Source: Promethearchaeia archaeon (lineage in GTDB: Archaea; Asgardarchaeota; Lokiarchaeia; Sigyniarchaeales; SOKP01). From it: a stretch of DNA of 64,000 bases. The notes beneath the pieces are model-generated. The model was not told where the DNA came from and ran no database searches. It saw only the letters and a program-made list of their open reading frames with translations. Both the position numbers and the translations under genes were made by a program. The first letter of the stretch is position 1, and every line of letters begins with the position of its first letter. Shown piece by piece: positions 1,221-64,000 of the stretch. Where the stretch lies: contig JAHQWJ010000009.1 in the NCBI GenBank assembly GCA_029856125.1, forward strand, positions 1 to 64,000. Direction: 5' to 3'.

Positions 1221-1436
1221 TCTAGTATTGGTAGATTCACATATTTTCTTCTAAATTGAAAAAATTTACAACTTAGGAATAAGCTCCCCAACTCGGGCTT
1301 GGTTAGATTGATCAATAAGATTAATCGCAGAAATAATAAAATTAAAAGAAAAAAGGAGGGTGAGAAAAGTTTATATTGTTACGAGATAAAGTAAAAGTAG
1401 AGATTCGACTCGAAGAGACAAAGTAAATCTAAAAAA

Positions 1437-3140: not shown

Positions 3141-3237
3141 TTCTAATCGAGTTTTAAATTTTCTAAATTAATATCTTTAAAAACATATAAATTAAACATA
3201 AAACTAATGTATTAATTATTAATTACAACATTTCTAG

Positions 3238-3861
3238 ATGAAGACAATGACAATAACATTTAGATATTTCTTTGATACTTTTTTGTTAATGGATTTAGTG
3301 GAAGCCGTTTTCCTCATACTTGTGTATGTGTCGATCTTTCTAGCATCGAAAAATCAGCTACGAGATAAAGAATCTGTAAGGTTACTAAGAAACTCAAGCC
3401 TGATTGGAATCATACTTTCTATTGTTCCTGTAATAGCTCCTGTAGTAGTCTGTACCAATTGCAGTGACTTAGAAATGATAATGGCAGGTTCAATTGCATT
3501 AAGTATTACGACATTGTCGATATTGCCGATGTTAATTTGCTTGGGAATAGGTTTTTTACTGTTCGGAAAACGAAATAGAGAAATATATGGCAACCTTCTC
3601 TTTCTTTCAGGAGTTTTTTGGATATTGGCATTTGTGGGAAATATATCAATATTGGCTAGCCTCTCATTTATGCTTCCGGGAGGAGGATTTAATTTTTTTC
3701 TTTCGTTGTTTGGCATTTTAAATCTTTTTCTATTACCTGCTCTTATTTTACTAATTATCCATGGAGCAAAAATGAAAGATAAGAATTTTATTCTAGCTGG
3801 TGTTTTCTACATACTTTCTTACCTATCGATTTTTATGGCATGGATTCCACTACCACCTTGA
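3238..3861 (+). CDS. Hypothetical multi-pass membrane protein
   Basis: About 6 hydrophobic segments, no recognisable motif. Confidence 0.65.
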   Translation: MKTMTITFRYFFDTFLLMDLVEAVFLILVYVSIFLASKNQLRDKESVRLLRNSSLIGIILSIVPVIAPVVVCTNCSDLEMIMAGSIALSITTLSILPMLICLGIGFLLFGKRNREIYGNLLFLSGVFWILAFVGNISILASLSFMLPGGGFNFFLSLFGILNLFLLPALILLIIHGAKMKDKNFILAGVFYILSYLSIFMAWIPLPP

Positions 3862-3934
3862 TAGTTATGGAACTTAAAAAGCTTAATATTTGAAACGGAA
3901 GAAAAAGAGAATAAGGATAACTGATATAAGAACT

Positions 3935-4282
3935 CTATTTCCTTTTCAACCAAAAATCAAAAGATCTTCCTGGTACAAATATATCAATCCCGGTAGATGG
4001 CTCATCTAGCATGTTTTTTACAACGTGAGTTTCATTTTCTGGGATAAAAACTGAATCACCCTCATATAAGGTTGCTTTTTGTCCTTCTTCATTAATTACC
4101 GAAATTTTGCCTTTTAAAACGACCAAAACTTGGGCATTTGGATGTTGATGAGAAGGAGATGCATGGTTTGGTGGTTTTACAAAATGTTCTACTGAAATAT
4201 CTTTTTCTTTACAAAGACTTACCCGCTTCCAGTTTTTCTCGGGTTCGTAACTTTCAGCGTCGTTAAAATGTATAACATTCAT
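3935..4282 (-). CDS. Cupin domain protein
   Basis: HQHPNAQ...G and IPENETH cupin motifs. Confidence 0.85.
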   Translation of the reverse strand: MNVIHFNDAESYEPEKNWKRVSLCKEKDISVEHFVKPPNHASPSHQHPNAQVLVVLKGKISVINEEGQKATLYEGDSVFIPENETHVVKNMLDEPSTGIDIFVPGRSFDFWLKRK

Positions 4283-4357
4283 AGTTAAATAAGATTATTG
4301 ATGGATTTATCTTTATCTAAAATCATTAAAAAAATAGGAAAATAAAAATAGAAAAAA

Positions 4358-5482
4358 TTAGGATTTATTGAGGAGATTTTGTTTTCTTATGAGTATCTCA
4401 TTATACATTTCTTCAGAATTTTGAGGAGGAATAATTTCCTTTTCTTTTTCTTTTCGAATTAACTGCATAGCTTCTTCTGGGCATACAGTTACACAGTTCC
4501 CACAGCCTATACAGCGCTTCGTTATTACTTTTGCGATGTCATTTTTTATTTTAATAGCGTTCATTTGGCACCTTTCTACACAAGTTCCGCAACCTACACA
4601 TAGTTCACTATCTACTTGGGCGTAGTAATTCGTGTGAAAGAAATCTATCGGACGTGGTAAGTCACTTAATCCCCTTAATACGCCACAACAGCAACCACAG
4701 CAACTACAAATGAAACTTGGTTTGATTGCGTTCCCTGCTTGCAGTATTAATCCATCTTCTTGATTTTTTCTAAGGATATCTAAAGCTTCACTTTTAGTGA
4801 TTTCTCTCCCTCTTCCGATATCAATAGGAAATTGCATATCCTCTCCGAATCCCATACAATTTTCTCGCAAAGAAGTTTGTTTGCATGGATCTCCCTGTAA
4901 ATCGTGATTTTGACGACAGATGCAATTAAAGAGAGCTATTGGACCCTCAATATTTTCGATAATTTTTGCTACTTCTTCGTAAGTTTGGAGATGATGTTCT
5001 GGAGTTACGCTTTTTTCCACTGGAACGGTGCGCATTTGTGGGAACCTAGCACCAATAAAAGCGATATTAAAACCCTCATCCTCAAATTGGTTTATGTCGT
5101 TTATAAATTCTAAAGTTAAGTTGTTTACTTTTGCTTCGTACATACCTACTGCGAAAATATCAGCAGCATACTTTTTTACTCCATCTCTAATAGCATATCT
5201 AATAGAACCCTTTTCTGCTAGGGTATCTAACTTATTCTCTAACTCTTGTTTTGTAAAGTTTAATTCTTTTGCGATTTCATGTATTTCGTTCACGCTCTGT
5301 AATTCCCACTTCAAGTATGTCCCGATTTTTGCCTCTTCTGGCGTGAAAAAATACGTTAAGACTTTCAAATCGATTCCGGATTTTGTAGCGGGAAATCCTA
5401 TCGGTAACTTATCAAGATTTTCCTGTAACTTCCGATATATGTCTGCGTTGGGCACTTCTATCTTATTATCTAGTTCTACCAT
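4358..5482 (-). CDS. 4Fe-4S dicluster protein with N-terminal HTH-like region
   Basis: CICR, CSCCGCCCG, CVGCGTCVERC and CIGCGNCVTVCP motifs. Confidence 0.85.
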   Translation of the reverse strand: MVELDNKIEVPNADIYRKLQENLDKLPIGFPATKSGIDLKVLTYFFTPEEAKIGTYLKWELQSVNEIHEIAKELNFTKQELENKLDTLAEKGSIRYAIRDGVKKYAADIFAVGMYEAKVNNLTLEFINDINQFEDEGFNIAFIGARFPQMRTVPVEKSVTPEHHLQTYEEVAKIIENIEGPIALFNCICRQNHDLQGDPCKQTSLRENCMGFGEDMQFPIDIGRGREITKSEALDILRKNQEDGLILQAGNAIKPSFICSCCGCCCGVLRGLSDLPRPIDFFHTNYYAQVDSELCVGCGTCVERCQMNAIKIKNDIAKVITKRCIGCGNCVTVCPEEAMQLIRKEKEKEIIPPQNSEEMYNEILIRKQNLLNKS

Positions 5483-5664
5483 AATTCAACCCTTTTTTTT
5501 AGATTTCAAGTTATGATTTAAGTAATCTTTCTTTTTAACATTATTCTCAGCTAATGCTAAAAGTATTGCTTAAGATTTAGGTAACTCGGAGTTCAAACAC
5601 CGGTGAAGTTTAAAAACCACTAATTTAGTTAATAACCTAACTTTTAATAGTTTACTTTTAAAAC

Positions 5665-6582
5665 TTACATTAATAATTCAGCAATAGCAATCCCGCTTTC
5701 TCCAGCTACAGAATACAACAGATAGGTCTTATCCTTCTCTTCATAGATGGCGGGATCACGCAATTGACATACCTTTTCATATACGGGTCCTCGCACGGAG
5801 GGAGTTGGTATTAAATTTCCACCTTCCCAGTCTTCCTCGGGATGTAATATTTTCATAGGAGCAGAAGGTTTCCATTTTAACCAATCTTCGGTTAAATCTA
5901 TAATCGAAAGTAAGATACTTTCCGGAGAATCCCCAACTTTGGTCCAAAATACCTGTAACTGGTTACTTAAGATCCTTAAGGCAGAATGGCGCATGTTCAT
6001 AGGAAAAAGTCGTTTTCCCATTTCGAAATGATCCAGACCGTTTAGAGATCGATAAAAAATACCAGGCATGCTCATTCCATAATAATATCCATTATAATGG
6101 AAAATCCGTAGATACGGTGGAGTTATTATCTTTGGTTTAGCTTTGAAGTGAATTCCATCTTTTGAGATAGCAACTCTAGATAATTGACGTACTTTCGATT
6201 CTAATCCATGAAAATACATCCTAATTTCTCTTTTAGCATCTATCACATGTACGTCAGGAGATGCGATATGTGGGACATTTTCATCCAATAAACTAGTTCT
6301 AATTTTGTGAGTAGGAGGATCTGTAGGAAAAAACGATTCTTCAATGTGAAGGCTACCCTTTTTGTAAATTTTCCAAGGTCCTTCCACTTGTTCGGCAAAC
6401 GCTAACCGGATGTAAGTACCTTTATGACCGGCGAAGTAAAGATAATATTTTCCAAGTGGATTTTCTATCCAGTCTGGTACTCGAATTAAAGAAGGACCTG
6501 CAATATTAGTACCTATGCTAGAATCTAATCTTGGAAATATTATTGGATTTCTCTCTAATCTTTTAATCTTGATGTCAGCCAT
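5665..6582 (-). CDS. Glycoside hydrolase-like five-bladed beta-propeller protein (GH43/32/130-like clan)
   Basis: NPII, YYLYF, HIASPDV, LRDPAIY and YLLYSVAGE blade motifs. Confidence 0.7.
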   Translation of the reverse strand: MADIKIKRLERNPIIFPRLDSSIGTNIAGPSLIRVPDWIENPLGKYYLYFAGHKGTYIRLAFAEQVEGPWKIYKKGSLHIEESFFPTDPPTHKIRTSLLDENVPHIASPDVHVIDAKREIRMYFHGLESKVRQLSRVAISKDGIHFKAKPKIITPPYLRIFHYNGYYYGMSMPGIFYRSLNGLDHFEMGKRLFPMNMRHSALRILSNQLQVFWTKVGDSPESILLSIIDLTEDWLKWKPSAPMKILHPEEDWEGGNLIPTPSVRGPVYEKVCQLRDPAIYEEKDKTYLLYSVAGESGIAIAELLM

Positions 6583-6686
6583 TACTATAATATATGTGTT
6601 AAAGCCTATTTTAATTTTCCCGGCTATTTAATAAAACTTTATTCTAAAAATGTCTTAATCCCAAGAATATAGAAAGTGCGAAACAG

Positions 6687-7058
6687 ATGATCGAAGGATT
6701 TAAAGCAGAAAGTGTCAGTCAAGTTAGAAAACCTATTGCTCGTGTATTCCGCATGATCGCAGAAGCAGGCGATAACGATTTACTTGCTTTAGCTGCTGAA
6801 AGGTCTGGTAGTCTTAATAATTGGTTTAAAATTTTAGCAACACCTACCCAAAGGAGAGAGGCTTTGAAAAAAATTAAAGTACCTGTAATGACCGTTGTAG
6901 GATCTACTGAGCTTCTCCTTGGAGACAAGACTTTAGTGGCTCAATTAGTTCCAGATGCGTGCCACTTTCAAATCCAAGGGAAAGATCACTCTACAATGAT
7001 ACCAGATCCTAAATTCCACATGGTTGTTAAAGCATTTCTCGATTTTGTTAATGATTAG
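6687..7058 (+). pseudogene. C-terminal fragment of an alpha/beta hydrolase
   Basis: LKKIKVPVMTVVGS...GKDH C-terminal motifs present; nucleophile-elbow half absent; only about 100 bp to the divergent gene. Confidence 0.6.
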
Positions 7059-7076
7059 TAGAGAGATTAAGTAGTT

Positions 7077-8741
7077 TTAACCAATTTTTCTCAATATTTC
7101 TTTATTGAGATCTGTGCTGTAAGAATTATAGAAATTTGAACTATATTTTTGGAAAAAGTCCTCTTTCTTTGCTAAGATAGATTTAGATTTTTCTGTTTTT
7201 GGTTTACCGCAAGCCCAAAAGATTTTACCTGAACTATTCAAATTAATATTTTCGTGGTCTTTTATTACTTTACCTGATTTTATTACATATTCCATATTTC
7301 CGAGAGCAGATTTGAAAGTTTCATAGTCTTTTGATATATCAGTTTCACTTAAATTCAAGTCTATAATATTGAGGTCACCGTCAGCTCCTAAACCTAAGGC
7401 CCCTTTAACAGATCCTATACCAAGAGATTTAGCAGGACTCGACCGAGTTAGAATAATAAACTCATTAAACGATAAAACATTACTAGTACTACTAATTGAG
7501 TTGTCCTTTAAGAACCCAGCTTCCATATCATTCATATAATGTTCGCGGGCGTTATTACTAATTAACCAACTTGCGATTTCGGGAAGATTTGTTATATCTG
7601 CGTAGTTTGGATAATTAATTGAAAACTGTAGTTGCCATGGAGATATATTTAATGCTAAATCAATCGCGTTCGCCCACATTAAGCAATCTTCTTTCGTTTT
7701 TTTACTGAATTTTCTGAGGGTAGCAAACGAGTCTCCTTCAGATTCTACAGAAGATCTAACTAGTTTGTATGGGTTTGTTGAATTATTTAGCTTGTTTATA
7801 AGATGCCGATCGGAGGTAATTAATGGATTTATTGCGTTAAAACCTATAAATCCCAAATCCATGTCAAATTCTTGATTTTCGTTGTAAAATTTAATCAACT
7901 CTGAGTTATCTCCGTCTATGTTATAACTTGAAGCATGAGCAAGGTGAAATATTTGAGATCGCTTTATTCCAAAATCGTTTTTTGGATTAGGTTTTAATCC
8001 AAGTGATTTCACCTTGTTTAAAGTTGCGAGTAAGTTTTCTTTAGAATATTGGGATTCGTACCCTTCAATATGAGCGTGAATAGAATGAGGCAACCCTAAG
8101 TGCTCAACAAATCTAGCAAGTTTTTCATACACATCCATAGGGGCGAAGTTGAATAGCCTTCCTTTTTCGGTTAGGTTTTTCCTAACTACTTTCCAATTCC
8201 AATACTCCGCTTCGAAAGGATTGTAGGCTTTCAAACCAAAACCTTTAACTTTCTCCAATAGATTTGATAAAAAAACAGCACCTTCTTCAACCAGCTCTTT
8301 CTGGAACTCAAGCTCTAGTGACCATAAATTGCTGGTATTTAATAAGAATGCCTTATCTAATACAGGTAATCGTTGTAAATCAAAAATAGTCTGTTTTGTT
8401 AGCGATGGGAAGACATTAGCTTCAAGGATAAAAGTATATCCGTTAGAAACATAATCTTTAGCGATAGAATTTAAAGTCAAGCCGTTCCAAAGGTTCTGGA
8501 AATCTTGGTTGTTAGAACCTAATAATCGAACCCAATTAAGTTGCTGGGAGGCTACATGAGCGTGAATCTCTAGAGCCGCTGGAATAACTGTTTTCCCTTT
8601 CGCGTCTATTTCTTTAACATCGCTACTGCTTACGAATTTATCTACGACCTTGCCGTCTTCAATTAAAATATCCTTTTTTTCGCCTTCAATGCTATTAAAG
8701 GGATCAAAAACAAAACCGTTTTTTACATGAAGTTTTGTCAT
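7077..8741 (-). CDS. fwdA: Formylmethanofuran dehydrogenase subunit A-like amidohydrolase (divergent)
   Basis: KNGFVFDP, IHAH, GYT, GLKAYNP, LGLPHSIHAH, PAKSLG motifs; TDHPN is replaced by INYPN. Confidence 0.85.
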   Translation of the reverse strand: MTKLHVKNGFVFDPFNSIEGEKKDILIEDGKVVDKFVSSSDVKEIDAKGKTVIPAALEIHAHVASQQLNWVRLLGSNNQDFQNLWNGLTLNSIAKDYVSNGYTFILEANVFPSLTKQTIFDLQRLPVLDKAFLLNTSNLWSLELEFQKELVEEGAVFLSNLLEKVKGFGLKAYNPFEAEYWNWKVVRKNLTEKGRLFNFAPMDVYEKLARFVEHLGLPHSIHAHIEGYESQYSKENLLATLNKVKSLGLKPNPKNDFGIKRSQIFHLAHASSYNIDGDNSELIKFYNENQEFDMDLGFIGFNAINPLITSDRHLINKLNNSTNPYKLVRSSVESEGDSFATLRKFSKKTKEDCLMWANAIDLALNISPWQLQFSINYPNYADITNLPEIASWLISNNAREHYMNDMEAGFLKDNSISSTSNVLSFNEFIILTRSSPAKSLGIGSVKGALGLGADGDLNIIDLNLSETDISKDYETFKSALGNMEYVIKSGKVIKDHENINLNSSGKIFWACGKPKTEKSKSILAKKEDFFQKYSSNFYNSYSTDLNKEILRKIG

Positions 8742-51238: not shown

Positions 51239-53479
51239 ATGATAAAAATTAAAACTAACAAAAAGAATTTGATAATACTATTGACTTTAGCAATGCTTTT
51301 AAGCGCATCTAGTTTACCGCTTACAGTAAAAGCTAACTCTGTAGATTTACGCACTAACGATCTTACTCCAAAGAGTTCACAAATTATTCCCAGAACGATT
51401 CGAGTGGCAATCTACAATGAACCAAATGTGACACAACCAGGTTACACAAGTGGAAATACATTTACTAATAATTATACAGCTTTGATCTTACTCTTAGAAT
51501 CCGCTGGTGTTGAAGTAACTGAATTAACTGGTGCTGATATATATAATCATAAACTTACAACGGCAGATTTTGATGTATTTATCTTGGTTGACAACGTACC
51601 ACGAGAAAATATAACTAATAATGTGAAAGAATTCTGGTTAGGAGGCGGGGGAATTTTATCATTTGATAGCGCTCTACCTTATTTATGTTACGCGGGGATA
51701 ATTATACCTGAATCAGAAGGAGATGACGGAAGACTTACCTACTGGACTTACCAATCTGGTATTGACCATAATGTTTCAACACGCCATCCTATTACGAAGG
51801 ATTATCAAGTGAATGATAAATATTCAACAGGAATATGGATGAACTATTTTTATTGGAGCGTTGTACAAGGGACATCTGTAGGTTCTGAAATTGTAAAACT
51901 AACAAATAGAGATGGAAACGACGATTATGCTACAGCCGTAGCACTCCGTCGTAGCGATATGGGTGGACCCATAGTTCATTTACCTGGGACAGCAGATATT
52001 ATAGGAATTAATATGAGTAGTTTGATTACGAATGCTATAGATTGGCTCTGTCCAAGACCTAAGGGAAGAATCGTTTATGATTTATCTCATAATCCCCGAT
52101 TAGGTGTTGATAATTGGGACGATTTAACGGCATATCCAGGGTATTACGAAGAATGGCGGAATGAAATAGTTAGTCGAAATTACTTGTTCGATAAACTCTA
52201 TCCATCTTCTTCGGGAAACTTTACTCTATCCCGCCTAAATTCCTACGATTTATTAGTAGTAGTAAGCCCCGATACAAACATAAGCGCATCCGAAGCAACC
52301 ACAGTATCCAATTGGATTAATAACGGCGGAAGTTTATTAGCTCTTGGTGATAATCCAACTGCTGCCAATTTTGATTTAACTGATCAAGAAATAAATAAGC
52401 TATTAACAGGTCGTGATTTAACTCTAAACCTTATTTTTGGTGCTGCGGGTAACGATGACTTAACACCTGTTTCACATCCTACAATTGAAGGATGTAATGA
52501 TTTAGAAATGGGCTCTAGAGGCGCTATTAATTTAACAGGTGACGCTCGTTCCTTATGGGAACTTGGGGGTAATGTTCATATAGCTTGCCAAGATACTGGA
52601 AATGGAAGGATAATCGTGAGTAATGATATGAATTGGTTAGCAGATACAAACATAGGAAATCAAGAAAATCGACAATTCAGTATTAATATAGTTAATTGGT
52701 TAACTTCAGACGACGCGGAAGTACTTCTCTATGTAGACGAACCAGACAGTCCAAACTATTACATAACACCCGTTTCTAATGCTCTTAATGAACTAGGTTT
52801 AAATTTCTACCTAACTTTTGACACGGACTATTTGAATTTATCTCTTAATTTGAATAATTGGGAATTACTTATTATTGACAACCCTTGGCCACCTCTTGGT
52901 GATTCAACTTTGACAACAGTGAATAATTTTGTTAAAGATGGAGGTTGGTTAATTATGTCCACTTACACTGTGAGTTTGGATCCTACTCATTCTCTATGGT
53001 CTAGATTGGGATTTGAGTATGATCAAGCACAACCTGGCAGCTCCTCTCTGTATATATGGAATGCAGCTCATCCAATCTTTAACTTTCCTGTTGATTATGG
53101 TGCAGCTAGATTTGACCCTATTAGAGATTATGGTGATGAAGGTGATCTACTTAGAGTTTATCCAAATGCTACTTCTTTAGCAGGATATACAGTCTCAGAA
53201 ACGGAAAACAATACAAATATAGTTTTAGCAAATGGTGGAAAGACATTATTTAATGGTTACCTTATCGATCAATTTACTGGAGATTATGACGACTCTGCCT
53301 ACACCGATAATTTTGAGTTGTGGATAAACGAAATTACATTTATGTGGGCTCAGATCGTAGCTGAACCTGTAATTGATGGTGGAATTCCTGGATATGATGT
53401 CTATTTGGTGTCTTTTGCAGCAGTCTTTTCAATAGGGATTATAACTATTATTACCTTACGAAAAAAGCGTAAAAATTAA
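51239..53479 (+). CDS. Secreted protein with tandem GATase-like (DUF4350/GIFT-type) domains and Loki-CTERM-like anchor
   Basis: Signal peptide; repeated GGG.L modules; IVYDLSH; C-terminal IPGYD + TM + RKKRKN. Confidence 0.78.
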   Translation: MIKIKTNKKNLIILLTLAMLLSASSLPLTVKANSVDLRTNDLTPKSSQIIPRTIRVAIYNEPNVTQPGYTSGNTFTNNYTALILLLESAGVEVTELTGADIYNHKLTTADFDVFILVDNVPRENITNNVKEFWLGGGGILSFDSALPYLCYAGIIIPESEGDDGRLTYWTYQSGIDHNVSTRHPITKDYQVNDKYSTGIWMNYFYWSVVQGTSVGSEIVKLTNRDGNDDYATAVALRRSDMGGPIVHLPGTADIIGINMSSLITNAIDWLCPRPKGRIVYDLSHNPRLGVDNWDDLTAYPGYYEEWRNEIVSRNYLFDKLYPSSSGNFTLSRLNSYDLLVVVSPDTNISASEATTVSNWINNGGSLLALGDNPTAANFDLTDQEINKLLTGRDLTLNLIFGAAGNDDLTPVSHPTIEGCNDLEMGSRGAINLTGDARSLWELGGNVHIACQDTGNGRIIVSNDMNWLADTNIGNQENRQFSINIVNWLTSDDAEVLLYVDEPDSPNYYITPVSNALNELGLNFYLTFDTDYLNLSLNLNNWELLIIDNPWPPLGDSTLTTVNNFVKDGGWLIMSTYTVSLDPTHSLWSRLGFEYDQAQPGSSSLYIWNAAHPIFNFPVDYGAARFDPIRDYGDEGDLLRVYPNATSLAGYTVSETENNTNIVLANGGKTLFNGYLIDQFTGDYDDSAYTDNFELWINEITFMWAQIVAEPVIDGGIPGYDVYLVSFAAVFSIGIITIITLRKKRKN

Positions 53480-55365: not shown

Positions 55366-56100
55366 CTATTTACCTACAACTCCAACATATATAGTAGTTT
55401 CATTTTTTCCATCGATTTCGAGAAATTGGTTAAGCTCATCGTCATATATAGCTCCTATCGTACAAGCGCCTAAATTGAGAGCTTCAGCAACTAAATAAAA
55501 GTTTTGGCCTATATGCCCCGCATCTAAGTAAATATATCGGTAACATCTTTGAAGGTATTTCCATTGAGAGCGGTCTATCATAGCCGTCCAAATGAAGTTA
55601 ACAGCGGAGTCATATGCAATTTTTTGATCAAGGCACCCCTCCGCTACTTTTTTTCGGAAGTCTCCTTCTTTTAGTAGCTCTATTGAATGGTTCTGAATAT
55701 TATAGTGATACAATCCTTCTTGCATATTCTTTATGTTATTGACGACGGGATAAATTTCAATAGGAAACAAACCTCCCGCTGAGGGTACAGTTCTAAACGA
55801 AAATTGTGGAAAAATCCTATTTAATCCAGACATACCAAACAAAAGTAAACTAAAATCCATCAAGGATAAAGGTTCTTCAGTGAATTCTCTAGTCGAATGC
55901 CTATTTTTGATTACGCTCCAAAATTGGATTGTTTCGTCAAATTTCGGTTCAGGCAGATCAATTTTTTTAACAGCATCAGGATAAGTTTTAAATGTTTTAG
56001 GCTTTCTTGACCAATCTAAAGCGTGTCGAGGTATTTTATTCCTAACGTATTTAGACTTCTGTTGGAACTCATCCCCAAAATTGTTTTTAAACTCGTTCAT
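55366..56100 (-). CDS. SagB/ThcOx-family nitroreductase-like dehydrogenase
   Basis: RHSTREF, RTVPSAGGLFPIE, YRYIYLDAGHIGQN. Confidence 0.9.
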   Translation of the reverse strand: MNEFKNNFGDEFQQKSKYVRNKIPRHALDWSRKPKTFKTYPDAVKKIDLPEPKFDETIQFWSVIKNRHSTREFTEEPLSLMDFSLLLFGMSGLNRIFPQFSFRTVPSAGGLFPIEIYPVVNNIKNMQEGLYHYNIQNHSIELLKEGDFRKKVAEGCLDQKIAYDSAVNFIWTAMIDRSQWKYLQRCYRYIYLDAGHIGQNFYLVAEALNLGACTIGAIYDDELNQFLEIDGKNETTIYVGVVGK

Positions 56101-56191: not shown

Positions 56192-57571
56192 TCATTTTAT
56201 TTTTACTCCTTGATTTTCAAGGGTTGTCTGGACTAGTGAAATATCTACATCTCTACATATCATATTTTCTTTAATCGATACTGCAGCGGCTACCCCCGCA
56301 CCTTGCCCAGTGGCAACACAACAAACCATCTGGCGAGTGGCAGCGTGAGACATCTTATCTCCTGCTACCCATCGTCCAGCTACAAGAAGATTTTCGACTT
56401 TCTTTGGAAGGATGATTCCATATGGGATTTGGAAGTATCTACCTGTAGTAGGCATAATTACAGTACCATATGCGTCGAGGAATTCAGGACAAACTCCTAT
56501 AGAATCCTCAAAGTGGGCTTGGTTTTTAACGTCCCATTCAGTGATGTTGTAATCGCCAATGATTTTACGCGATTCCCTTGTTCCTAATGACGATCCTATA
56601 TTCTTTAGCCTTGCTTTTTCAAACCCAGGAGTACGCCTTCTCAAAGAGTTAATTAATTTAATTATTCGCCTTCTTCCTTCTATCTCAGCTTTAGTAAGAT
56701 CGAATACATCTGTACAGTCTATATCACTTATATGGATACCATTAAAAGAATTGATAATTCCTAATTCTACATATTGATTCCATATCTTTTTTATCGGGAT
56801 GCTCTCAGGTATAATATCTTCTTTATTAGCTCTGTTCATTGGCTCTAAGAAACAAGTAAAATCATCTATAAAAAACAATTCTCCGGATTGTTGAAGATAT
56901 GGAAGGAACTTGGGTTTTTTCTGAATTTTTCTTAAAAGATAAGTAAAAAATTTATCAATATCAACGCCACTACAACCAAAATTGACTGTAACTCCCATTA
57001 ATTTATTTTTGGGGTCTTTCTTATAAGGAGCTCCAGCGTAATAAGCTATATCAGCATCTCCCGTCGCATCAATTACTCGTTTAGCCATGATTGCCTGCCT
57101 TCCTGATTTACTTTCCGTAATGATTCCTGTAATAGTATTTCCATTCATGATAGCATCAACAGCCTGACAATGTAGTAAAGGAGTTACTCCTGCTTCCTCT
57201 ATTAAATTATCAGCTAGAACTTTAAAAATTTCAGTATCTAAGATTTCATAGGTCGGGACACCATCTACCAATAAACCTTCTTTTTCGAGAAATTTTCCTA
57301 TCTCAGTCGTTTTTATTTTTTTATTAAACGTATTAATAGTCCCACTCATTTCTTTTGCTTTAAGTTCAAATTCTTTAATTATACCTCCAGCATCTATGGT
57401 TTTTACATAACGATACCAAGTAGGAGTCCCTACCATTGTTTGGGTTATTACACCGCCAAAAGAACCATAGCGTTCTACTAGTAAAGTATCGACGCCCTCT
57501 CTAGCTGCGCCAATAGCTGCAGCAAGACCTGCAGGTCCTCCACCAACAACTAAAACATCTGCTTTTGCCAA
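56192..57571 (-). CDS. FAD-dependent oxidoreductase; true start probably 57607-57613
   Basis: DVLVVGGGPAG, IDATGDAD, RESRKIIG, IPYG, NLLVAGR; conserved-looking ITEPSKNIPI in frame upstream of the TTG. Confidence 0.9.
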   Translation of the reverse strand: MAKADVLVVGGGPAGLAAAIGAAREGVDTLLVERYGSFGGVITQTMVGTPTWYRYVKTIDAGGIIKEFELKAKEMSGTINTFNKKIKTTEIGKFLEKEGLLVDGVPTYEILDTEIFKVLADNLIEEAGVTPLLHCQAVDAIMNGNTITGIITESKSGRQAIMAKRVIDATGDADIAYYAGAPYKKDPKNKLMGVTVNFGCSGVDIDKFFTYLLRKIQKKPKFLPYLQQSGELFFIDDFTCFLEPMNRANKEDIIPESIPIKKIWNQYVELGIINSFNGIHISDIDCTDVFDLTKAEIEGRRRIIKLINSLRRRTPGFEKARLKNIGSSLGTRESRKIIGDYNITEWDVKNQAHFEDSIGVCPEFLDAYGTVIMPTTGRYFQIPYGIILPKKVENLLVAGRWVAGDKMSHAATRQMVCCVATGQGAGVAAAVSIKENMICRDVDISLVQTTLENQGVKIK

Positions 57572-57757
57572 TATAGGAATATTTTTTGAAGGTTCAGTAA
57601 TAAAGACGCTAATTCACCTCCATGGTGAAATCATTATAATTTTCATTATCTTTGTTCATAATTAAAATCAATTAAACTCATATACGAAATTTAAATTGAT
57701 GTTATGAAAACATATAGTAAGTAAGAAAAAAAATAAAAGAAAATGAGTTATATATTG

Positions 57758-57994
57758 TTATTTTACTGCTTCAAAATAGATGTGCCACAGCTCGTCATCA
57801 TCGAGAAAATCTGTTCCTAAGTGTTTGTGCTTAGTTTTTGCTAAATCACGCGGAACTGATTCAGATGCGGGTTTATAGTCTGTTATTACCTTCAATACGG
57901 TACCCGGTCTCATCCTCATGAGTTGTTTCTTGGTTTTCAACGCAGGTACGGGACAGACTAAGCCGGTCACGTTTAATTCTTGGTCGAATTTCAT
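57758..57994 (-). CDS. tusA: TusA-family sulfur carrier
   Basis: LNVTGLVCPVP (CPxP), LKVITD. Confidence 0.88.
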   Translation of the reverse strand: MKFDQELNVTGLVCPVPALKTKKQLMRMRPGTVLKVITDYKPASESVPRDLAKTKHKHLGTDFLDDDELWHIYFEAVK

Positions 57995-58030
57995 AATTTT
58001 TACCTCTTTATTTTTTAATATTGTTTTTGA

Positions 58031-60496
58031 TTAATCTTCACATACAGGTGAAAAAATTGGCTCGTCCATACCAGGCTCAACATTCATTTCAATCTGGTTT
58101 AATTGAACTAACCTTAAAGCTTCGTATCTCACTTTTTTTGCTTCTAAATCTAAAATTTCAGAAATTTTACTAATAGTGGCAGATCCTATGCGTGTGATAT
58201 AATTTAAGACTTCTTGTCTAGGTGTTTTATTTAGTAATTTTAATTCTCTTTTTGACTTCAGATTGATTGCTTTCTGTAATTCTTCTTCGTTAACGCTTCC
58301 TTCTTCAAATAAACCTTTTTTAATACCGTTTTCAATTATATCCTTTCCTCTATCTGTCCATGCTACAACCGTAGTAAATCCTTCTTTAGAGCCTACTTCA
58401 CCAGCTGTAAAGTCCGAATAAATTGCAGGAAAATCTTGGCAATGCAAACAGTAATGATTACAACTTAAGCAACGCTTCGCTTCTGCTAACGCCATATCTT
58501 CGTTAAATATCGCATCAATTTCATCAAAGTCCCATTTAATATTCTCTGTAGCCATTTCTAACGATTCTGGTTTTAAAGAAAAGTCTTTTGGTGGTTTCTT
58601 CTGTCCAGCGAAAAACATTCTATCTTCTTTATACCTATCAGTTGTAAGATCCTGGCCTAGTAAATAACGATCTATCGAAATGGCAGCTTCTTTTCCGTGA
58701 GCAATTGCTGCGATAGCTACAGCTTTTGAGTTTGCGATAATATCCCCACCAGCAAAAACACTTGGAATGTTTGTTTCAAATGTTATAGGATTGATATCAA
58801 TTTTATTCCGTTCTTTTTTGAGTTTGTTATTAGTAGCTATATCAATCAAATTATAATCAACGGTTTGTCCAACAGCAATGACAATAACATCGATTGGAAT
58901 TTCATAATCAGAGCCTTCAACTTTATTTAGTTGGCGTCTACCAGTCTCGTTACGCTCTCCCCACTTAATTTTGTAACTATTTAATATCAAACCGTCTCCT
59001 TTTCCTTTGGTTATTTTAGTGGTTGAGGTTCCAAAATGGTACTCCATGTATTTGTATTCTTCTTCTGGAATCTCTCTTAATGTAAGCTCAAGATCTTTCT
59101 CAGACATAATATCTACAAGGTGTATTTTTTCAGCGCCTAATCTCAGAGCCGTTTGAGCTACATCAACTGCTACGGAACCCCCTCCTATAATACCGACGGT
59201 TTTACCCTTAAATTCTTTTAGGTTTGTCCATTCGCGATATTTCCTATCGATAAGAAAATTTATAGCAACAAATACATTTGGGAGGTCCTCACCTTCTAGA
59301 TGCAATGTAAGGGGTTTATATTGACCTGTTGAGATAAATATTGCTTCAAATCCATCTTCTTTTAAATCTTCAACAGTCATATCAGGACCTAATGGAGTAT
59401 TAAATACAATTTCCACACCAGCATTCTTAATAGTCTCTACATCGTAATCGAGTATGTAATTAGGTAATCGGAATTGAGGCACTCCGAATCTTAACATTCC
59501 ACCCGTTTGATCTGTTTTTTCGAAAATCGTGGGCGAATATCCTTTAAGTGATAGAAAATATCCCGCTGTTAAACCTGCTGGTCCAGAACCTATGATTGCA
59601 ACCTTCTTTCCCAGTTTTTTGATTTTTTGAGCTTTTGTAGCTCTCCCATGTTCAATTTCATATTCAGTAACAAATTTTTTTAATTCTCGAATAGCGACGG
59701 GGTTATCGGATCCTATCAATGAGCATCCATGTTCACATTCGTGCGTACAGATTCTTCCACAAACCGAGGGTAAAGGATTATTTTCACGTACTAATTCCAC
59801 AGCTTCTAAATAATTTCCTTCACGAATTAAAGAAATGTAACCTCGGGCATCAACTCCTGAAGGACATCCACTAGAGCACGGTGAATGAATTAAACCTCTA
59901 TCAGTATATTCAGTTCGAATACTTGAATTACAAAATAAGCCCATTTTAAGGATATCTCTATTCATTTCCTCCTCAAGTTCAGCAGCACCTCTTATTTCAC
60001 AAGGAACACCAATAATTCCTAGAGGTTCGAAATCTTTTCCTGTTTCCTCCACTAATTTTTGTAAAACCCCTGATCGTCCATACACAACCCCAGCTCTTTG
60101 AACAACATCATCAGGGTTGGATACTATACTTGCTTTTGGTAAGTCGTCAACATTTTGTACCATAACGATTTTGGATAGTTCTTTTTCTTTTAAAAGATCC
60201 TGTGCAATAGTAGTTACAAATCCACCGCTGCTTGCTCTTGCTAAAATTTCGGAGTTATTACTTCTTAAGGAATAGATTCCTTTTAGTTGTATTTCTTTGA
60301 ATTTTTTCTGGATTACTTGCGGACAATTTTCGTAGCATTTTCCGCATTTTTGTCCGTCTCTTTCTAAAATACAATAATCTTTTAATATCGGACGCAATGT
60401 TTCCATTTCTACATGCTTGCAATATCCTACACACAGACCACAGCCCTGACATAAACCAGCGTCAATAACTTCACTTTTTAATAGTTCGAAACTCAT
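58031..60496 (-). CDS. FrhB-family protein with a GltD-like FAD/NAD(P) module inserted internally and a C-terminal wHTH
   Basis: N: CQGCGLCVGYC, SSGGFVT, GVPCE, GLFC; middle: PCSSGCP, CGRICTHECE, GSGPAG, FAGGD, EAKRCLSC; C: CLHCQDF..YSDFTAGEVGS..GFTTVV..TDRG. Confidence 0.85.
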   Translation of the reverse strand: MSFELLKSEVIDAGLCQGCGLCVGYCKHVEMETLRPILKDYCILERDGQKCGKCYENCPQVIQKKFKEIQLKGIYSLRSNNSEILARASSGGFVTTIAQDLLKEKELSKIVMVQNVDDLPKASIVSNPDDVVQRAGVVYGRSGVLQKLVEETGKDFEPLGIIGVPCEIRGAAELEEEMNRDILKMGLFCNSSIRTEYTDRGLIHSPCSSGCPSGVDARGYISLIREGNYLEAVELVRENNPLPSVCGRICTHECEHGCSLIGSDNPVAIRELKKFVTEYEIEHGRATKAQKIKKLGKKVAIIGSGPAGLTAGYFLSLKGYSPTIFEKTDQTGGMLRFGVPQFRLPNYILDYDVETIKNAGVEIVFNTPLGPDMTVEDLKEDGFEAIFISTGQYKPLTLHLEGEDLPNVFVAINFLIDRKYREWTNLKEFKGKTVGIIGGGSVAVDVAQTALRLGAEKIHLVDIMSEKDLELTLREIPEEEYKYMEYHFGTSTTKITKGKGDGLILNSYKIKWGERNETGRRQLNKVEGSDYEIPIDVIVIAVGQTVDYNLIDIATNNKLKKERNKIDINPITFETNIPSVFAGGDIIANSKAVAIAAIAHGKEAAISIDRYLLGQDLTTDRYKEDRMFFAGQKKPPKDFSLKPESLEMATENIKWDFDEIDAIFNEDMALAEAKRCLSCNHYCLHCQDFPAIYSDFTAGEVGSKEGFTTVVAWTDRGKDIIENGIKKGLFEEGSVNEEELQKAINLKSKRELKLLNKTPRQEVLNYITRIGSATISKISEILDLEAKKVRYEALRLVQLNQIEMNVEPGMDEPIFSPVCED

Positions 60497-61734
60497 AATA
60501 ATCCCTCGTTAATTTTAAATTCTGTTATAATGCCATCTGGATTAATGGCATATTTTATCGCACCATTTTTGTAGTTTCCTTCCACTACATCAAAAACTTG
60601 TGCTTTATATTCGTTAAAATCATCGTTAGTATCGATAATTGACTTAAACCCACCAAAAAATATGTTTGATAAGTTCATATTACCCGCAACAAATCGGATT
60701 TTATCCGTAATTTCTTTATATTTTGTTGAATCTTCGTTATTAATAGCGATTTGTAAATCTTTTTCTAGTTGTAGGAGTTCGTTCCGGTATTTTTTTGTCT
60801 GTTCGCTTACTTCTATTTGATTTGCTTCCTCATAGGATTTGATGAATTTAAGCGTTAAAGATACCGACTTGGCGCCACCTAAAAGTCCTGTTATCAAAGG
60901 TACTTCCTCTATTAGCCTACCAATAAAAATATCTTCTAATAAAGTTCCTGAAGAAGGGATTCTACCTTTTGGTAAACCAGAAGTAGGTAATGTAAATCTG
61001 AAAAAATTTCCAACGATATCAGGTAAACTGTCTGTTAGATCGTCGTCATCGTCGCCTAACTTGTCAGTTGCTCCTTTCACTGAGTGTTCCGTTGCAATTT
61101 CAATGTTCCCAGCTAAAGTACCGAATAATGCTAACATACGAATTCCAGAACGATCTATGCTTGGTTTACAACCTCTACAAGGAGTGTTGTAATCGATACA
61201 CTTCTCTTTGCATTCAGTTGAAGTAAAGCCACTGCACAGAAAACCTAGGTCGTTAAAACAAGTTTCAGAATCTTCCATTTCAATTTGTCTATGAATTTCT
61301 TCTAAATAATCACAAGTTGCTTTTCTTGAGCAAACTTGACATAAGCTTTTTAATTTTGGAACATCTGTTCCATCAATCGCTAATTTTAATTCTTCAATTT
61401 CGCCTAAACATCCATATACGCTACTTGAAGCTTCAATTAAGTTTGATATTGGCATTATATCGTGTCCTTTTTGATTTGCTAAAGCAAATAATCCACCTGT
61501 AACCGTGCAATCTCCATAAGCAATAACCCTATCTGAGTTGTTTTTAATTATTTCTAATTGTTTCAAATCATTAGGGAGTAAATAGCCTGTAATAACCGAT
61601 ATGTCAACCTTTTTTTCTTTCCAAGCCTTAGGATCAGAAATAAATTCCACTTTATATAAAGAGTTTTCTTTAAGTAATAAAGCCTCATTGAAGCACTTTT
61701 TACATCCGTTAAATTGGAATACCTTAACATCCAT
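60493..61734 (-). CDS. MvhG-like (NiFe hydrogenase small-subunit fold) Fe-S protein with long C-terminal extension
   Basis: GCKKC, IAYGDCTVTGG, YGC, CQVC, CFNDLGFLCSG, PCRGC. Confidence 0.78.
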   Translation of the reverse strand: MDVKVFQFNGCKKCFNEALLLKENSLYKVEFISDPKAWKEKKVDISVITGYLLPNDLKQLEIIKNNSDRVIAYGDCTVTGGLFALANQKGHDIMPISNLIEASSSVYGCLGEIEELKLAIDGTDVPKLKSLCQVCSRKATCDYLEEIHRQIEMEDSETCFNDLGFLCSGFTSTECKEKCIDYNTPCRGCKPSIDRSGIRMLALFGTLAGNIEIATEHSVKGATDKLGDDDDDLTDSLPDIVGNFFRFTLPTSGLPKGRIPSSGTLLEDIFIGRLIEEVPLITGLLGGAKSVSLTLKFIKSYEEANQIEVSEQTKKYRNELLQLEKDLQIAINNEDSTKYKEITDKIRFVAGNMNLSNIFFGGFKSIIDTNDDFNEYKAQVFDVVEGNYKNGAIKYAINPDGIITEFKINEGLL

Positions 61735-62179
61735 CTTTTATCGTCCCCTTTTCTGTAATTGCAGTTGTTAATCGATCTATGATATCTTCGAAATCACCAA
61801 CAGCAGTTTCACCTTCCGCAGCTCGTGAAGTGTATTGATTTACAAATTGATCGCTATAGCCTAACTCTTTGAAGACCTTTTTCATCATTTTTATTCTGTG
61901 CATCGAAATTACGTTGCCATTAAAAAAATGACACGCACCTAAACAACATCCAACACAAGCAACAGCGTCCGCACCGTTATTTAGCGCTTCCATGATCTGA
62001 ATCGGTCCAATTTGACCCGTGCATTGTACTCTAATTATTCTAATTGCAGCATCGTACGACATACGAGCGACACCCGCAGTGTTTGCTGAGCCTTGACCAC
62101 ACTCGTTACACATGAAGACAACAATATTCTGAATCCTCTCTTGAATATATTCATTAGTAGTTTCGCAATTTTCACTCAT
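61724..62179 (-). CDS. mvhD: Methyl-viologen-reducing hydrogenase delta subunit (2Fe-2S)
   Basis: FMCNEC, IRIIRVQCTG, GAD, GCCLGACHF..GN; ATGA overlap with the hdrA stop. Confidence 0.88.
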   Translation of the reverse strand: MSENCETTNEYIQERIQNIVVFMCNECGQGSANTAGVARMSYDAAIRIIRVQCTGQIGPIQIMEALNNGADAVACVGCCLGACHFFNGNVISMHRIKMMKKVFKELGYSDQFVNQYTSRAAEGETAVGDFEDIIDRLTTAITEKGTIKDGC

Positions 62180-64000
62180 TCGCACACAGCACCTCCACCT
62201 GATACGGCAATAATTTCATCGTATAGTTGATTGTCTGTGAAATTAATCAATTGAATTGCGCTTGTTGGACAACTTGGCATACACATACCGCACGACCTGC
62301 ACGCTATTTTGTTAACAGTAGGTCTCCCGTTTTCGTCAATATCAATAGCGGCTGGTGCACAAATCGTTTTGCAAATTCCGCAATTAACACATAAATCGTA
62401 ATCTATTGAAGGTACCAACATTTCCTTTTCTATGTAGCCTTTAACTAATGGTGCAGCGGCTAAAGCGGCAGCACTACCCGCGTGAGCTACGGTCTCTGAA
62501 ATATCTTTTGGTCCCTGAATCGCTCCCGCTAAGAAAATTCCTCCCTTGCTACTCAACGTAGGGTTCATCTTAATGTGAAACTCTTTTAAGAAACCTTCCT
62601 TGGAACGTAAAACTTTTAGTTTAGAACCGAGAGGTCCAATGCCTTCTGGAGGAACCATAGCGGCTGACAACACTATCAAATCAGCTTTTAATTGCAAAGG
62701 CGTCATACTCAAAGTGTCTTCTACAATAACTTTTAACTCTCCACTTATAGGATCCTTAATAATTTCTGAAGGTCTTCCGCGGATGAATCTGACTCCAACT
62801 TCTTGAGTCGATTTATACATTTCTTCGAAATTTAATCCTGGAGTTCGTATGTCTATATAACAAATCGTCACATCGGTGTCAGGATACATTTCCTTGACTA
62901 TTCGAGCGTTTTTTATCGCAAATTTGCAGCATACACCCGTACAATACTGATTACCAACTTGATCATTTCTACTTCCAACACATTGAATCATTACAATGCT
63001 TTTGGGAAATTTTCCGTCAGAAGGTCGCAATACTTCGCTACTAGTCAAAGAAGTTGGTGATAACATTCTTTCCAATTTCAATTGAGTAATAACATCTTCG
63101 TATCCATCTTGTCCATAGTGATAGGGTTCAATTTCCGTAGGATCGTATTCACTATAACCAGCGGCAACTATAATTGAACCAACTTTAACCTTTTTAGTCT
63201 CAGGTTGCATAGAAAAATCAATCGCTTGGACTGGGCATATGTTAATACATGTATTACACTCAATACAAGCCTTTTTGTCCCTTACGAATGTAGCGGGAAT
63301 TGCTTGAGGATACGCTTTATAAATAGCGTTCCGCATAGACATTCCTTTATCCCATTCACTAGGAACTTCTACTGGGCAGTGTAAGGAGCACTCGCCACAA
63401 GAAGTACAATTATCTTTAACATAGCGAGGCTTAATTTCGATTTCAACTTCAAAATTTCCTAGCGATCCATCAATGCTTCTAATTTGAGCATTTGTATAAA
63501 GCTCAATGAGCGGATGATTCGCAACTCCATTAGTTAAAGGCGATATCGAACATTGTGGACATTCAAGAGTGGGAAATGTTTTATTCAATTGTGTCATGTG
63601 CCCACCAATTGTAGAATTTTTCTCTACTAAAAACACTGGTATACCTAATTCTGCCAAATCATTAGAAGATCTAAGACCAGCGATACCCGCACCAATAACT
63701 AATGCAGCTTTAGTGGTCGAAATTCGCCTGGTTTCTACGTCTTCAAGTTTTCGAGCTCGATTTACTCCAGCTTCGACCAATCGAAGTGCTTTTGCAGTAG
63801 CTTTTGCTTCGTCTTTTTTATGAACCCAACTACAATATTCTCGAACATTGACTTGTTGGTGTTTGTGTTTATTAATGCCCTCTTCAGCAATGGCTTTCGC
63901 AAAAGTCTTACCGTGTTGATTTTTAGAACAACTTGCTACCACAGTTCTATTAACTCCTAATTCTTTAATTGAATCCTTTACCATTTGAACTCCTGGCTTT
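62176..64000 (-). CDS. hdrA: Heterodisulfide reductase subunit A, 5' end beyond the window
   Basis: Frame open to the edge (KPGVQMVKD...); VVASCS, NVREYCSWVH, GAGIAG, KTFPTLEC, QCVGSR, YIDIRT, QGPKDI, C-terminal 2x4Fe-4S. Confidence 0.95.
   Translation of the reverse strand, partial: KPGVQMVKDSIKELGVNRTVVASCSKNQHGKTFAKAIAEEGINKHKHQQVNVREYCSWVHKKDEAKATAKALRLVEAGVNRARKLEDVETRRISTTKAALVIGAGIAGLRSSNDLAELGIPVFLVEKNSTIGGHMTQLNKTFPTLECPQCSISPLTNGVANHPLIELYTNAQIRSIDGSLGNFEVEIEIKPRYVKDNCTSCGECSLHCPVEVPSEWDKGMSMRNAIYKAYPQAIPATFVRDKKACIECNTCINICPVQAIDFSMQPETKKVKVGSIIVAAGYSEYDPTEIEPYHYGQDGYEDVITQLKLERMLSPTSLTSSEVLRPSDGKFPKSIVMIQCVGSRNDQVGNQYCTGVCCKFAIKNARIVKEMYPDTDVTICYIDIRTPGLNFEEMYKSTQEVGVRFIRGRPSEIIKDPISGELKVIVEDTLSMTPLQLKADLIVLSAAMVPPEGIGPLGSKLKVLRSKEGFLKEFHIKMNPTLSSKGGIFLAGAIQGPKDISETVAHAGSAAALAAAPLVKGYIEKEMLVPSIDYDLCVNCGICKTICAPAAIDIDENGRPTVNKIACRSCGMCMPSCPTSAIQLINFTDNQLYDEIIAVSGGGAVCE

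Follow-up and report, generated by a model that had tools for sequence, protein, structure and literature searches.

Known Hdr-based complexes and the lokiarchaeial operon

The MvhAGD-HdrABC and VhuAGD-HdrABC complexes (structures 5ODC and 9SW2) combine a long HdrA, an HdrB with two CCG motifs, a two-cluster HdrC, MvhD, and a three-cluster MvhG. The same set of proteins, encoded in the same compact hdrCBA-mvhD-mvhG order, is found in an operon of Lokiarchaeia, part of which lies at the end of the 64,000-nucleotide window analyzed here (positions 1 to 64,000 of contig JAHQWJ010000009.1, assembly GCA_029856125.1, from a Promethearchaeia archaeon of the order Sigyniarchaeales). In contrast to the Mvh-Hdr complexes, this operon encodes no catalytic MvhA. 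Its MvhG-like protein, referred to below as MvhG*, is fused to what is left of the [NiFe] large subunit, a relic devoid of Cys, and a flavoprotein of the F420 and NAD(P)H type occupies the place of mvhA, as the initial annotation of the window had already recognized. There is no Mcr, and five sulfur-carrier genes are part of the operon. This arrangement is a hydrogenase-less, flavoprotein-fed, sulfur-relay-linked variant of the Hdr-based bifurcating complexes. It appears moderately likely that its products form an HdrABC-MvhD bifurcating complex that is fed by F420H2 or NADH, not by H2, and probably acts on sulfur carried by TusA and DsrE.

The Elp-Hdr complex (ElpABC-HdrABC) of nickel-limited Methanothermobacter is F420H2-dependent and contains the FrhB-like ElpB, a truncated non-catalytic FdhA (ElpA), and an MvhD homolog (PMC12350162). 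As in Elp-Hdr, an F420 subunit of the FrhB/FdhB type takes the place of the H2 module in the lokiarchaeial system and would be joined to HdrA via an MvhD homolog and a scaffold made from a dead enzyme. However, the scaffold comes here from a hydrogenase (MvhG plus the MvhA relic) and not from a formate dehydrogenase, an NAD(P)H module is nested in the F420 subunit, and the substrate would not be CoM-S-S-CoB. No ElpA/FdhA-like gene was found in any of the loci, where MvhG* with its relic stands between mvhD and the FrhB-type gene.

A preprint on Nerearchaeum marumarumayae proposes that a cytosolic Hdr of Asgard archaea reduces TusA/DsrE-bound persulfides and is fed H2 by a group 3c [NiFe] hydrogenase (10.1101/2025.07.22.663070). 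The hydrogenase-less module formed by MvhG*, its relic, and FrhB::GltD is not described there, and neither is the 12-gene operon. The metabolic reconstruction of strain MK-D1 names only MvhADG-HdrABC and FlxABCD-HdrABC (PMC7015854), and a literature search found no paper that describes the 12-gene operon, the complex, or the MvhG-relic protein.

Conservation and variants of the operon

The genome is represented by 153 contigs (3.69 Mb, 33% G+C, 99% complete by marker genes). The contig in question is 64,124 bp long and extends 124 bp past the window, so that the full 12-gene operon of this genome is deduced from relatives with 75 to 93% identity. The loci used for comparison come from three families of the order and show 78 to 90% identity, with distant ones down to 45 to 55%. 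In 20 out of 20 of these loci, as far as the contigs reach, the gene order is tusA-dsrE-dsrF-dsrH-dsrE2-hdrC-hdrB-hdrA-mvhD-mvhG*-frhB::gltD-tusA. The hdrC-hdrB pair is found directly upstream of hdrA in every relative with a sufficiently long contig; the lack of hdrBC reported in the initial annotation was an artifact of the contig end, whereas the lack of mvhA reported with it extends to the operons of all relatives. A search for a NiFe large-subunit gene, with the RxCGxC and DPCxxC ligands, found none in the operon in 20-plus loci.

The operon is found in the closed genomes of “Candidatus Lokiarchaeum ossiferum” B35 (CP104013.1, ~2.411-2.424 Mb) and Promethearchaeum syntrophicum MK-D1 (NZ_CP042905.2, ~655-666 kb). 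MvhG* is encoded in 71 of the 161 genomes of the class, representing 12 of its 30 genera. A pattern scan of 185,579 GTDB species representatives, which used Loki-specific peptides and would miss distant versions, yielded 74 loci, all of them labeled Asgard and mostly Promethearchaeota. The homologs of the FrhB::GltD fusion and of MvhG* are also labeled Asgard, mostly Lokiarchaeota or Promethearchaeota. In the relatives, a gene for an Lrp/AsnC regulator is usually located close to the operon.

The initial annotation made its reading dependent on whether the fusion and tusA stay together with hdrA-mvhD-mvhG*. They do: the fusion is present in 56 of the 60 complete species-representative loci over which its status was tallied, and tusA follows it in every relative whose contig allows this to be seen. 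Two of the 60 loci (variant B) encode a plain FrhB of 380 amino acids in which both ends of the GltD insert have left remnants and which, hence, derives from the fusion by deletion; these operons contain an extra hdrC-hdrB pair after tusA. In variant C, found in a single locus from “Candidatus Harpocratesius repetitus,” the flavoprotein core is gone and the ferredoxin domain is joined to the C-terminal tail only, giving a protein of 142 amino acids. In another single locus, from Sigynarchaeum, the fusion has an in-frame stop. Throughout this deletion series, the carriers, MvhG* with its relic, and the Hdr core stay the same. A decaying pseudo-operon was considered and rejected, as the proteins of different families still share 50 to 93% identity and none of the cofactor ligands varies.

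Some of the relatives' loci (designated L) show peculiarities of their own. A second hdrC-hdrB-hdrA set (40 to 45% identity), divergent from the tusA-dsrEFH start of the operon, is found in MK-D1 (L048:1-2618) and in L063:1-1747. In genome G140, a second copy of the fusion, split into pieces of ~150 and ~670 amino acids (38 to 46% identity), follows tusA (L049:1650-4090). The hdrA gene of genome G164 is spread over two frames (L055:7924-8217 and 6329-7933), which reflects either a frameshift or a sequencing error. A 10-kb contig assigned to a different family of the phylum (L053, G073:C137) carries the operon at an identity typical of genus g12. The respective bin is 9% contaminated, and mis-binning is more likely than transfer.

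MvhG*, a small subunit with a large-subunit relic

The N-terminal part of MvhG* is a typical small subunit. In profile searches, residues 3 to 261 match the MvhG/VhuG chains of structurally determined Mvh-Hdr complexes (9sw2_E, E = 9.6e-21; 5odc_E, E = 1.6e-19), and the VIA comparison of this part to 5odc_E gives a Z score of 11.5. It contains 13 invariant Cys residues, enough for three [4Fe-4S] clusters (cysteines here and below were tallied in orthologue alignments, with 16 to 27 sequences for MvhG* and 14 to 19 for the Hdr, MvhD, and carrier proteins).

The remainder of the protein, approximately residues 256 to 413, is a shrunken [NiFe] large subunit. Its profile, compared by hhalign with that of 23 lokiarchaeial MvhA/VhuA sequences, gives a probability of 85.7, an E value of 5.4e-6, and a score of 45.6, against scores of no more than 22.6 for 30 column shuffles, 20.6 for the reversed query, and no more than 17.3 for unrelated alignments. 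Residues ~265 to 325 align to the L1 region of the large subunit (positions 41 to 101), with GLLGG in place of the nickel-binding RICGxC. The fold tells the same story: VIA-align superimposes residues 263 to 413 of the model on FrhA (6qgt_A) with a Z score of 9.1 and a root mean square deviation of 3.0 over 141 residues, and FrhA 6qgt_A is the sole match beyond the small-subunit domain among the top 50 in an exhaustive structural search. The relic (~150 to 158 residues) does not contain a single Cys. Because the large subunit has been reduced to this Cys-free relic, no Ni-Fe site can form, so that MvhG*, with its three Fe-S clusters, would serve as an electron wire and scaffold.

Other searches added little. 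The relic has no match above threshold in Pfam or among PDB sequences. Its ESM Atlas features reach 0.84 to clusters of NiFeSe_Hases, which is below the level at which a match counts and is a lead only; an ESM Atlas search with the whole MvhG* returned its own cluster only. The AF2 model of MvhG*, built with 16 orthologues, is poor (pLDDT of 60, with the cluster region, residues 128 to 258, below 50), and Foldseek searches with it gave small subunits only. The relic thus came to light solely in the exhaustive VIA search and the hhalign comparison.

Complete hydrogenases are found elsewhere in this genome. Contig C106 (positions 1324-5676) carries a canonical locus with hdrA, mvhD, and genes for the small and the NiFe large subunit, and contig C18 (66247-69693) carries genes for a small and a large subunit followed by hdrC and hdrB. 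Both large subunits belong to group 3c, and each has its own adjoining small subunit. The presence of such large subunits at other loci of this genome and its relatives would be in line with an ordinary H2-dependent Mvh-Hdr complex in which MvhG* borrows a large subunit encoded elsewhere. This explanation is barely credible: the C106 and C18 subunits already have their partners alongside, MvhG* already carries a fused relic aligned to the L1 region, and the single mvhA of MK-D1 is ~3 Mb away from the operon, while the single mvhA locus of L. ossiferum is 0.4 Mb away.

The FrhB::GltD flavoprotein

The 821-residue flavoprotein contains both modules that were initially recognized in it, an FrhB-type F420 reductase and an NfnB/GltD-type flavoprotein. 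However, these are not fused end to end: the GltD module is nested inside FrhB, which resumes behind it and is followed by a winged-helix-like tail. The FrhB part is closest to the solved chains 8rja_E (E = 2e-36) and 8riu_B, which are F420-reductase subunits of the Fwd and CODH complexes of Ethanoperedens. These subunits have the same ferredoxin-plus-FrhB build, and their reduction of F420 has been measured (PMC11493965). This relationship suggests that the FrhB part binds F420. The present genome encodes CofH and CofE, both above the curated cutoffs, and complete F420 biosynthesis has been reported for Lokiarchaeota in the literature.

The GltD insert (PF14691, 88 bits; PF07992, 82 bits; PRK12771, 392 bits) comprises two [4Fe-4S] clusters, an FAD fold, and an NAD(P)H fold. 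It is closest to NfnA (9n5u_A, E = 1e-119) and StnA (8oh5_C), with a Foldseek E value of 5e-40, and is also similar to 9bov_A. The first CxxC of the GltD cluster domain is located at the C-terminal edge of the insert. The inserted module is, therefore, a close relative of those in NfnABC, StnABC, and NfnSL (9N5U, 9BOV, 8OH5, and 5JCA), with the same clusters and folds. In contrast to those systems, it is nested in FrhB and is neither fused to a formate-dehydrogenase-like domain nor paired with NfnA/S. In addition, the β2 strand of its nucleotide-binding fold ends in VDI in nearly all members, in place of the NADPH-type YRR. By the usual rule, this strand end suggests a preference for NADH.

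The AF2 model of the fusion (m0716f2c828c6) has a pLDDT of 87.9 and a pTM of 0.81. In this model, the tail consists of helices (residues 759 to 798) followed by two strands. It is conserved in the alignments and is kept even where the flavin domains have been lost; its only Pfam hit is a sub-threshold match to HVO_A0114 (E = 0.015), and a search of PDB sequences found nothing above threshold. Among the matches listed from 1.84 billion cluster representatives, two clusters (54% and 46% identity) match over the full length; apart from these and some fragments, the listed matches share only the GltD module. A complex prediction for MvhG* with the plain FrhB of variant B returned a score of 0.00, which makes no call for or against an interaction.

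Nested GltD modules are also found in other contexts. A paralogous module, 53% identical to residues 205 to 694 of the fusion, is encoded on contig C112 (10621-12090, plus strand) and in P0128. In the C112 paralog, it is nested in a protein of ~925 amino acids that also contains ferredoxin and CCG (HdrD-like) domains and recurs in many of the family's genomes. In ANME-1 and Bathyarchaeota, a GltD insert has been described within HdrA itself.

The Hdr core and the sulfur carriers

The predicted Hdr core is a standard HdrABC-MvhD. HdrA is of the long bifurcating type (~675 amino acids). It has an FAD fold and two ferredoxin domains, one inserted and one C-terminal; Pfam Fer4 matches are found at residues 186 to 265 and 527 to 580. 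In NCBIfam, it matches the HdrA2 model with 662.7 bits and the HdrA model with 584 bits over residues 1 to 595, both below the curated cutoffs. The HdrA of the window is truncated at the contig end and, in contrast to HdrA2, lacks a fused MvhD domain. MvhD retains six invariant Cys residues in 19 orthologues. In the relatives' operons, HdrB has the 10 invariant Cys residues of two CCG motifs (19 operons), and HdrC has the 8 Cys residues of two [4Fe-4S] clusters (14 operons). Many paralogs of FrhB, HdrA, and MvhD are encoded on other contigs of this genome.

Five carrier genes, tusA-dsrE-dsrF-dsrH-dsrE2, precede hdrCB, and a second tusA ends the operon. In the TusA encoded in the window, the motif VCP.PALKTK is invariant in 18 orthologues. 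The catalytic Cys is invariant in TusA1, TusA2, DsrE, and DsrE2 (14 to 18 orthologues for the TusA CPxP motif and DsrE), and DsrH has no conserved Cys column. A search of this 99%-complete genome gave no McrA (PF02249), whereas control methanogens were positive; with no Mcr, CoM-S-S-CoB is not expected as the substrate. DsrC/TusE (PF04358), the usual acceptor of DsrEFH, was also not found in this genome, and DsrC is absent from three closed genomes of relatives. Since McrA and DsrC are missing and the carrier cysteines are invariant, carrier-bound sulfur is the best candidate for the HdrB site and, judging by gene linkage only, its most likely substrate. A separate, stand-alone dsrEFH set with no adjoining hdr genes is located on contig C8.

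HdrB has a CCG pattern identical to that of its methanogen counterpart, whose substrate is a small heterodisulfide. This similarity, together with the Cys-less DsrH and the missing DsrC/TusE, would fit a complex with the same donor in which HdrB reduces a low-molecular-weight disulfide of Lokiarchaeia, while TusA and DsrE supply cofactor or cluster biosynthesis or some other pathway. Such a division of labor is rather improbable, given that the five carrier genes are fixed in their order across three families, that a tusA gene stands at each end of the operon, and that the operon contains no gene for the biosynthesis of a thiol cofactor.

Selenium, and not sulfur, could also be the element that is trafficked, in which case a selenotrisulfide-type species would be reduced to selenide for selenoprotein synthesis. 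The best NCBIfam match of the window TusA is the selenium-linked YedF (E = 1.3e-8), and Asgard archaea reportedly have a large selenoproteome that includes Hdr and Vhu subunits (PMC11227280). However, the YedF match is below the curated cutoff, the operon contains no selD, yedE, or SECIS-related gene, and the demand for a trace element would hardly call for a bifurcating machine of 12 genes. This variant appears very improbable.

Proposed reaction and its direction

We infer the assembly, donor, substrate, and direction of the complex as follows. The Hdr core would be a soluble, methanogen-type HdrABC-MvhD bifurcating (or confurcating) complex with a disabled H2-oxidizing module. Electrons would enter or leave via the F420 reductase with its nested FAD/NAD(P)H module and pass through MvhG*. 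The CCG site of HdrB would act on sulfane sulfur or on a di- or trisulfide held on TusA, DsrEFH, or DsrE2. The most likely reaction would be 2 F420H2/NADH + oxidized ferredoxin + carrier-bound S(0) or disulfide -> reduced ferredoxin + thiols/H2S.

The textbook potentials are approximately -320 mV for NADH, -340 mV for F420, approximately -500 mV for ferredoxin, and approximately -270 mV for S(0)/H2S. These values favor the transfer of electrons from reduced ferredoxin and sulfide to NAD+, as would be expected if the complex ran in the oxidative or confurcating direction, with reduced ferredoxin from 2-oxoacid oxidation and carrier thiols or sulfide jointly reducing F420 or NAD+, or if it carried out an sHdr-like oxidation of sulfane sulfur. 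In the sHdr-LbpA systems of Hyphomicrobium and Metallosphaera, which include TusA, DsrE3, and DsrE2, the hdr genes are also found beside those of TusA/DsrE-family transferases, and this neighborhood is a hallmark of sulfur-oxidizing sHdr loci (PMC11094781, PMC4175335). The sHdr systems have a short non-bifurcating HdrA, HdrC1B1/C2B2, a hypothetical subunit, and LbpA, which is obligatory, but no MvhD or MvhG. The initial annotation had proposed a link to sulfur by analogy with these systems. The link itself is now stronger, with tusA-dsrEFH-dsrE2 preceding hdrCB. The analogy fails on architecture: a system of sHdr type was rejected because HdrA is long and retains its two ferredoxin domains, the operon includes mvhD, the domains listed for the called genes of the annotated loci include no lipoyl domain of the LbpA or GcvH type, and a second hdrCB is found only in variant B. 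The same features, including the absence of hdrC2B2 in the present variant, stand against the oxidative direction, and these organisms are anaerobic fermenters with no obvious sulfite sink. Even with the extra hdrC-hdrB pair of the variant B operons counted in its favor, the oxidative direction is unlikely. The TusA persulfide initially proposed as the acceptor is a candidate, and the direction of the reaction is putative as well.

Several points weigh against the reductive, flavoprotein-fed complex that we favor. At the above potentials, it has little driving force, and bifurcation with a persulfide acceptor works only when sulfide is low or when the actual substrate, a di- or trisulfide, has a more positive potential. 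The flavin donor is usual in the operon but dispensable to the core, as seen in variants B and C. F420 binding is predicted from homology, and the NADH preference from a motif. DsrH lacks a conserved Cys column, and DsrC, to which DsrEFH usually delivers, is missing. A search of the assembly for the upstream seven genes gave only paralogs with no more than 51% identity.

A more specific proposal is that F420H2/NADH-driven bifurcation is an energy-conserving reaction of Lokiarchaeia, the two classic cultured strains among them, in which ferredoxin is reduced together with a TusA/DsrE2 persulfide or trisulfide at HdrB, and that it evolved from an H2-dependent Mvh-Hdr complex through a dead hydrogenase and the acquisition of a two-flavin donor. 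This proposal is tentative and, taken as a whole, somewhat doubtful.

Implications for Asgard metabolism

The role of HdrABC in non-methanogenic archaea, above all in Asgard, is a question for models of syntrophic metabolism. The operon offers a candidate substrate, carried sulfur, and a non-H2 electron partner, F420 and/or NADH. It also preserves an evolutionary record: a nickel-free wire arose from a hydrogenase, in parallel with the dead formate dehydrogenase of Elp-Hdr, and the donor module was later deleted in a few lineages. If the proposed reaction is correct, Asgard redox balance would be tied directly to sulfur, as is assumed in hydrogen-sulfur syntrophy models of eukaryogenesis. The idea is testable now, as both MK-D1 and L. 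ossiferum, for which transcriptomes and proteomes exist, encode the operon.

Gene organization in the window and neighboring genes

The five genes of the window, all on the minus strand, have the domains and junctions that were initially assigned to them (Table 1). The hdrA/mvhD and mvhG*/fusion overlaps are both ATGA, and mvhD overlaps mvhG* by 11 bp. The tusA gene starts 36 bp past the stop codon of the fusion and is preceded by a GAGGT motif. The start of hdrA had to be revised. Its reading frame continues without a stop up to the contig end and encodes the canonical HdrA N terminus (VFVCHCGHNIAG), so that the ATG at 63984, initially taken as the start codon, is internal, and both hdrA and the operon are truncated in this assembly. 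The HdrA of the window is 93% identical to the complete 678-amino-acid HdrA of the relative's locus L002. The T-rich tract behind tusA likely acts as an archaeal terminator and closes the operon; further downstream, gene content varies between relatives.

Table 1. Genes, protein segments, and the 3' tract of the operon part contained in the window
Feature	Coordinates	Strand	Evidence
hdrA, 3' part, 607 codons in window	62176..64000, continuing to contig end 64124	-	HdrA models, open frame
mvhD, [2Fe-2S] connector subunit, 151 aa	61724..62179	-	PF02662, 107.6 bits; VhuD model, 92.7 bits
mvhG*, Oxidored_q6/MvhG-like, 413 aa	60493..61734	-	Domain match
mvhG* residues 1-255, MvhG-type small subunit	60970..61734	-	Profile, structure, Cys ligands
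mvhG* residues 256-413, Cys-free [NiFe] large-subunit relic	60496..60969	-	hhalign, VIA-align
frhB::gltD fusion, FrhB_N/GltD/FrhB_C, 821 aa	58031..60496	-	Domain matches
Fusion residues 1-196, 2x[4Fe-4S] ferredoxin and first part of FrhB	59909..60496	-	PF04422 at 75-145; FpoF model at 9-196
Fusion residues 197-680, nested NfnB/GltD module	58457..59908	-	PF14691, PF07992, PRK12771
Fusion residues 681-750, FrhB resumes (CxxC.DF...AGE.GS)	58247..58456	-	PF04432 FrhB_FdhB_C at 665-737; 3zfs_C aligns at 683-737
Fusion residues 751-821, helical winged-helix-like tail	58034..58246	-	Alignment conservation
tusA (second in operon), 78 aa, CPxP active-site Cys	57758..57994	-	PF01206, 66.6 bits
T-rich tract 3' of tusA stop	57715..57757	-	Direct reading of sequence

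Directly downstream of the T-rich tract, on the same strand, is a gene for a 459-amino-acid FAD_oxidored protein (56192-57571, minus strand; PF12831, 312 bits). Because the examined relatives lack it at the corresponding position, this gene probably does not belong to the operon. Another gene codes for a SagB-type nitroreductase/dehydrogenase (55366-56100, minus strand; TIGR03605, 153.8 bits), and a gene of the nitroreductase family is found within a few kilobases downstream of the operon in the relatives' loci L002, L003, L061, and L062. A 746-amino-acid DUF4350/ABC_transp_aux protein (51239-53479, plus strand) shows a sub-threshold match to the IFT52 GIFT domain and has homologs near the operon in L003, L061, and L063. 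At the opposite end of the window, an FrhB-like open reading frame (167-826, minus strand) shares 24% identity with residues 2 to 189 of the fusion.

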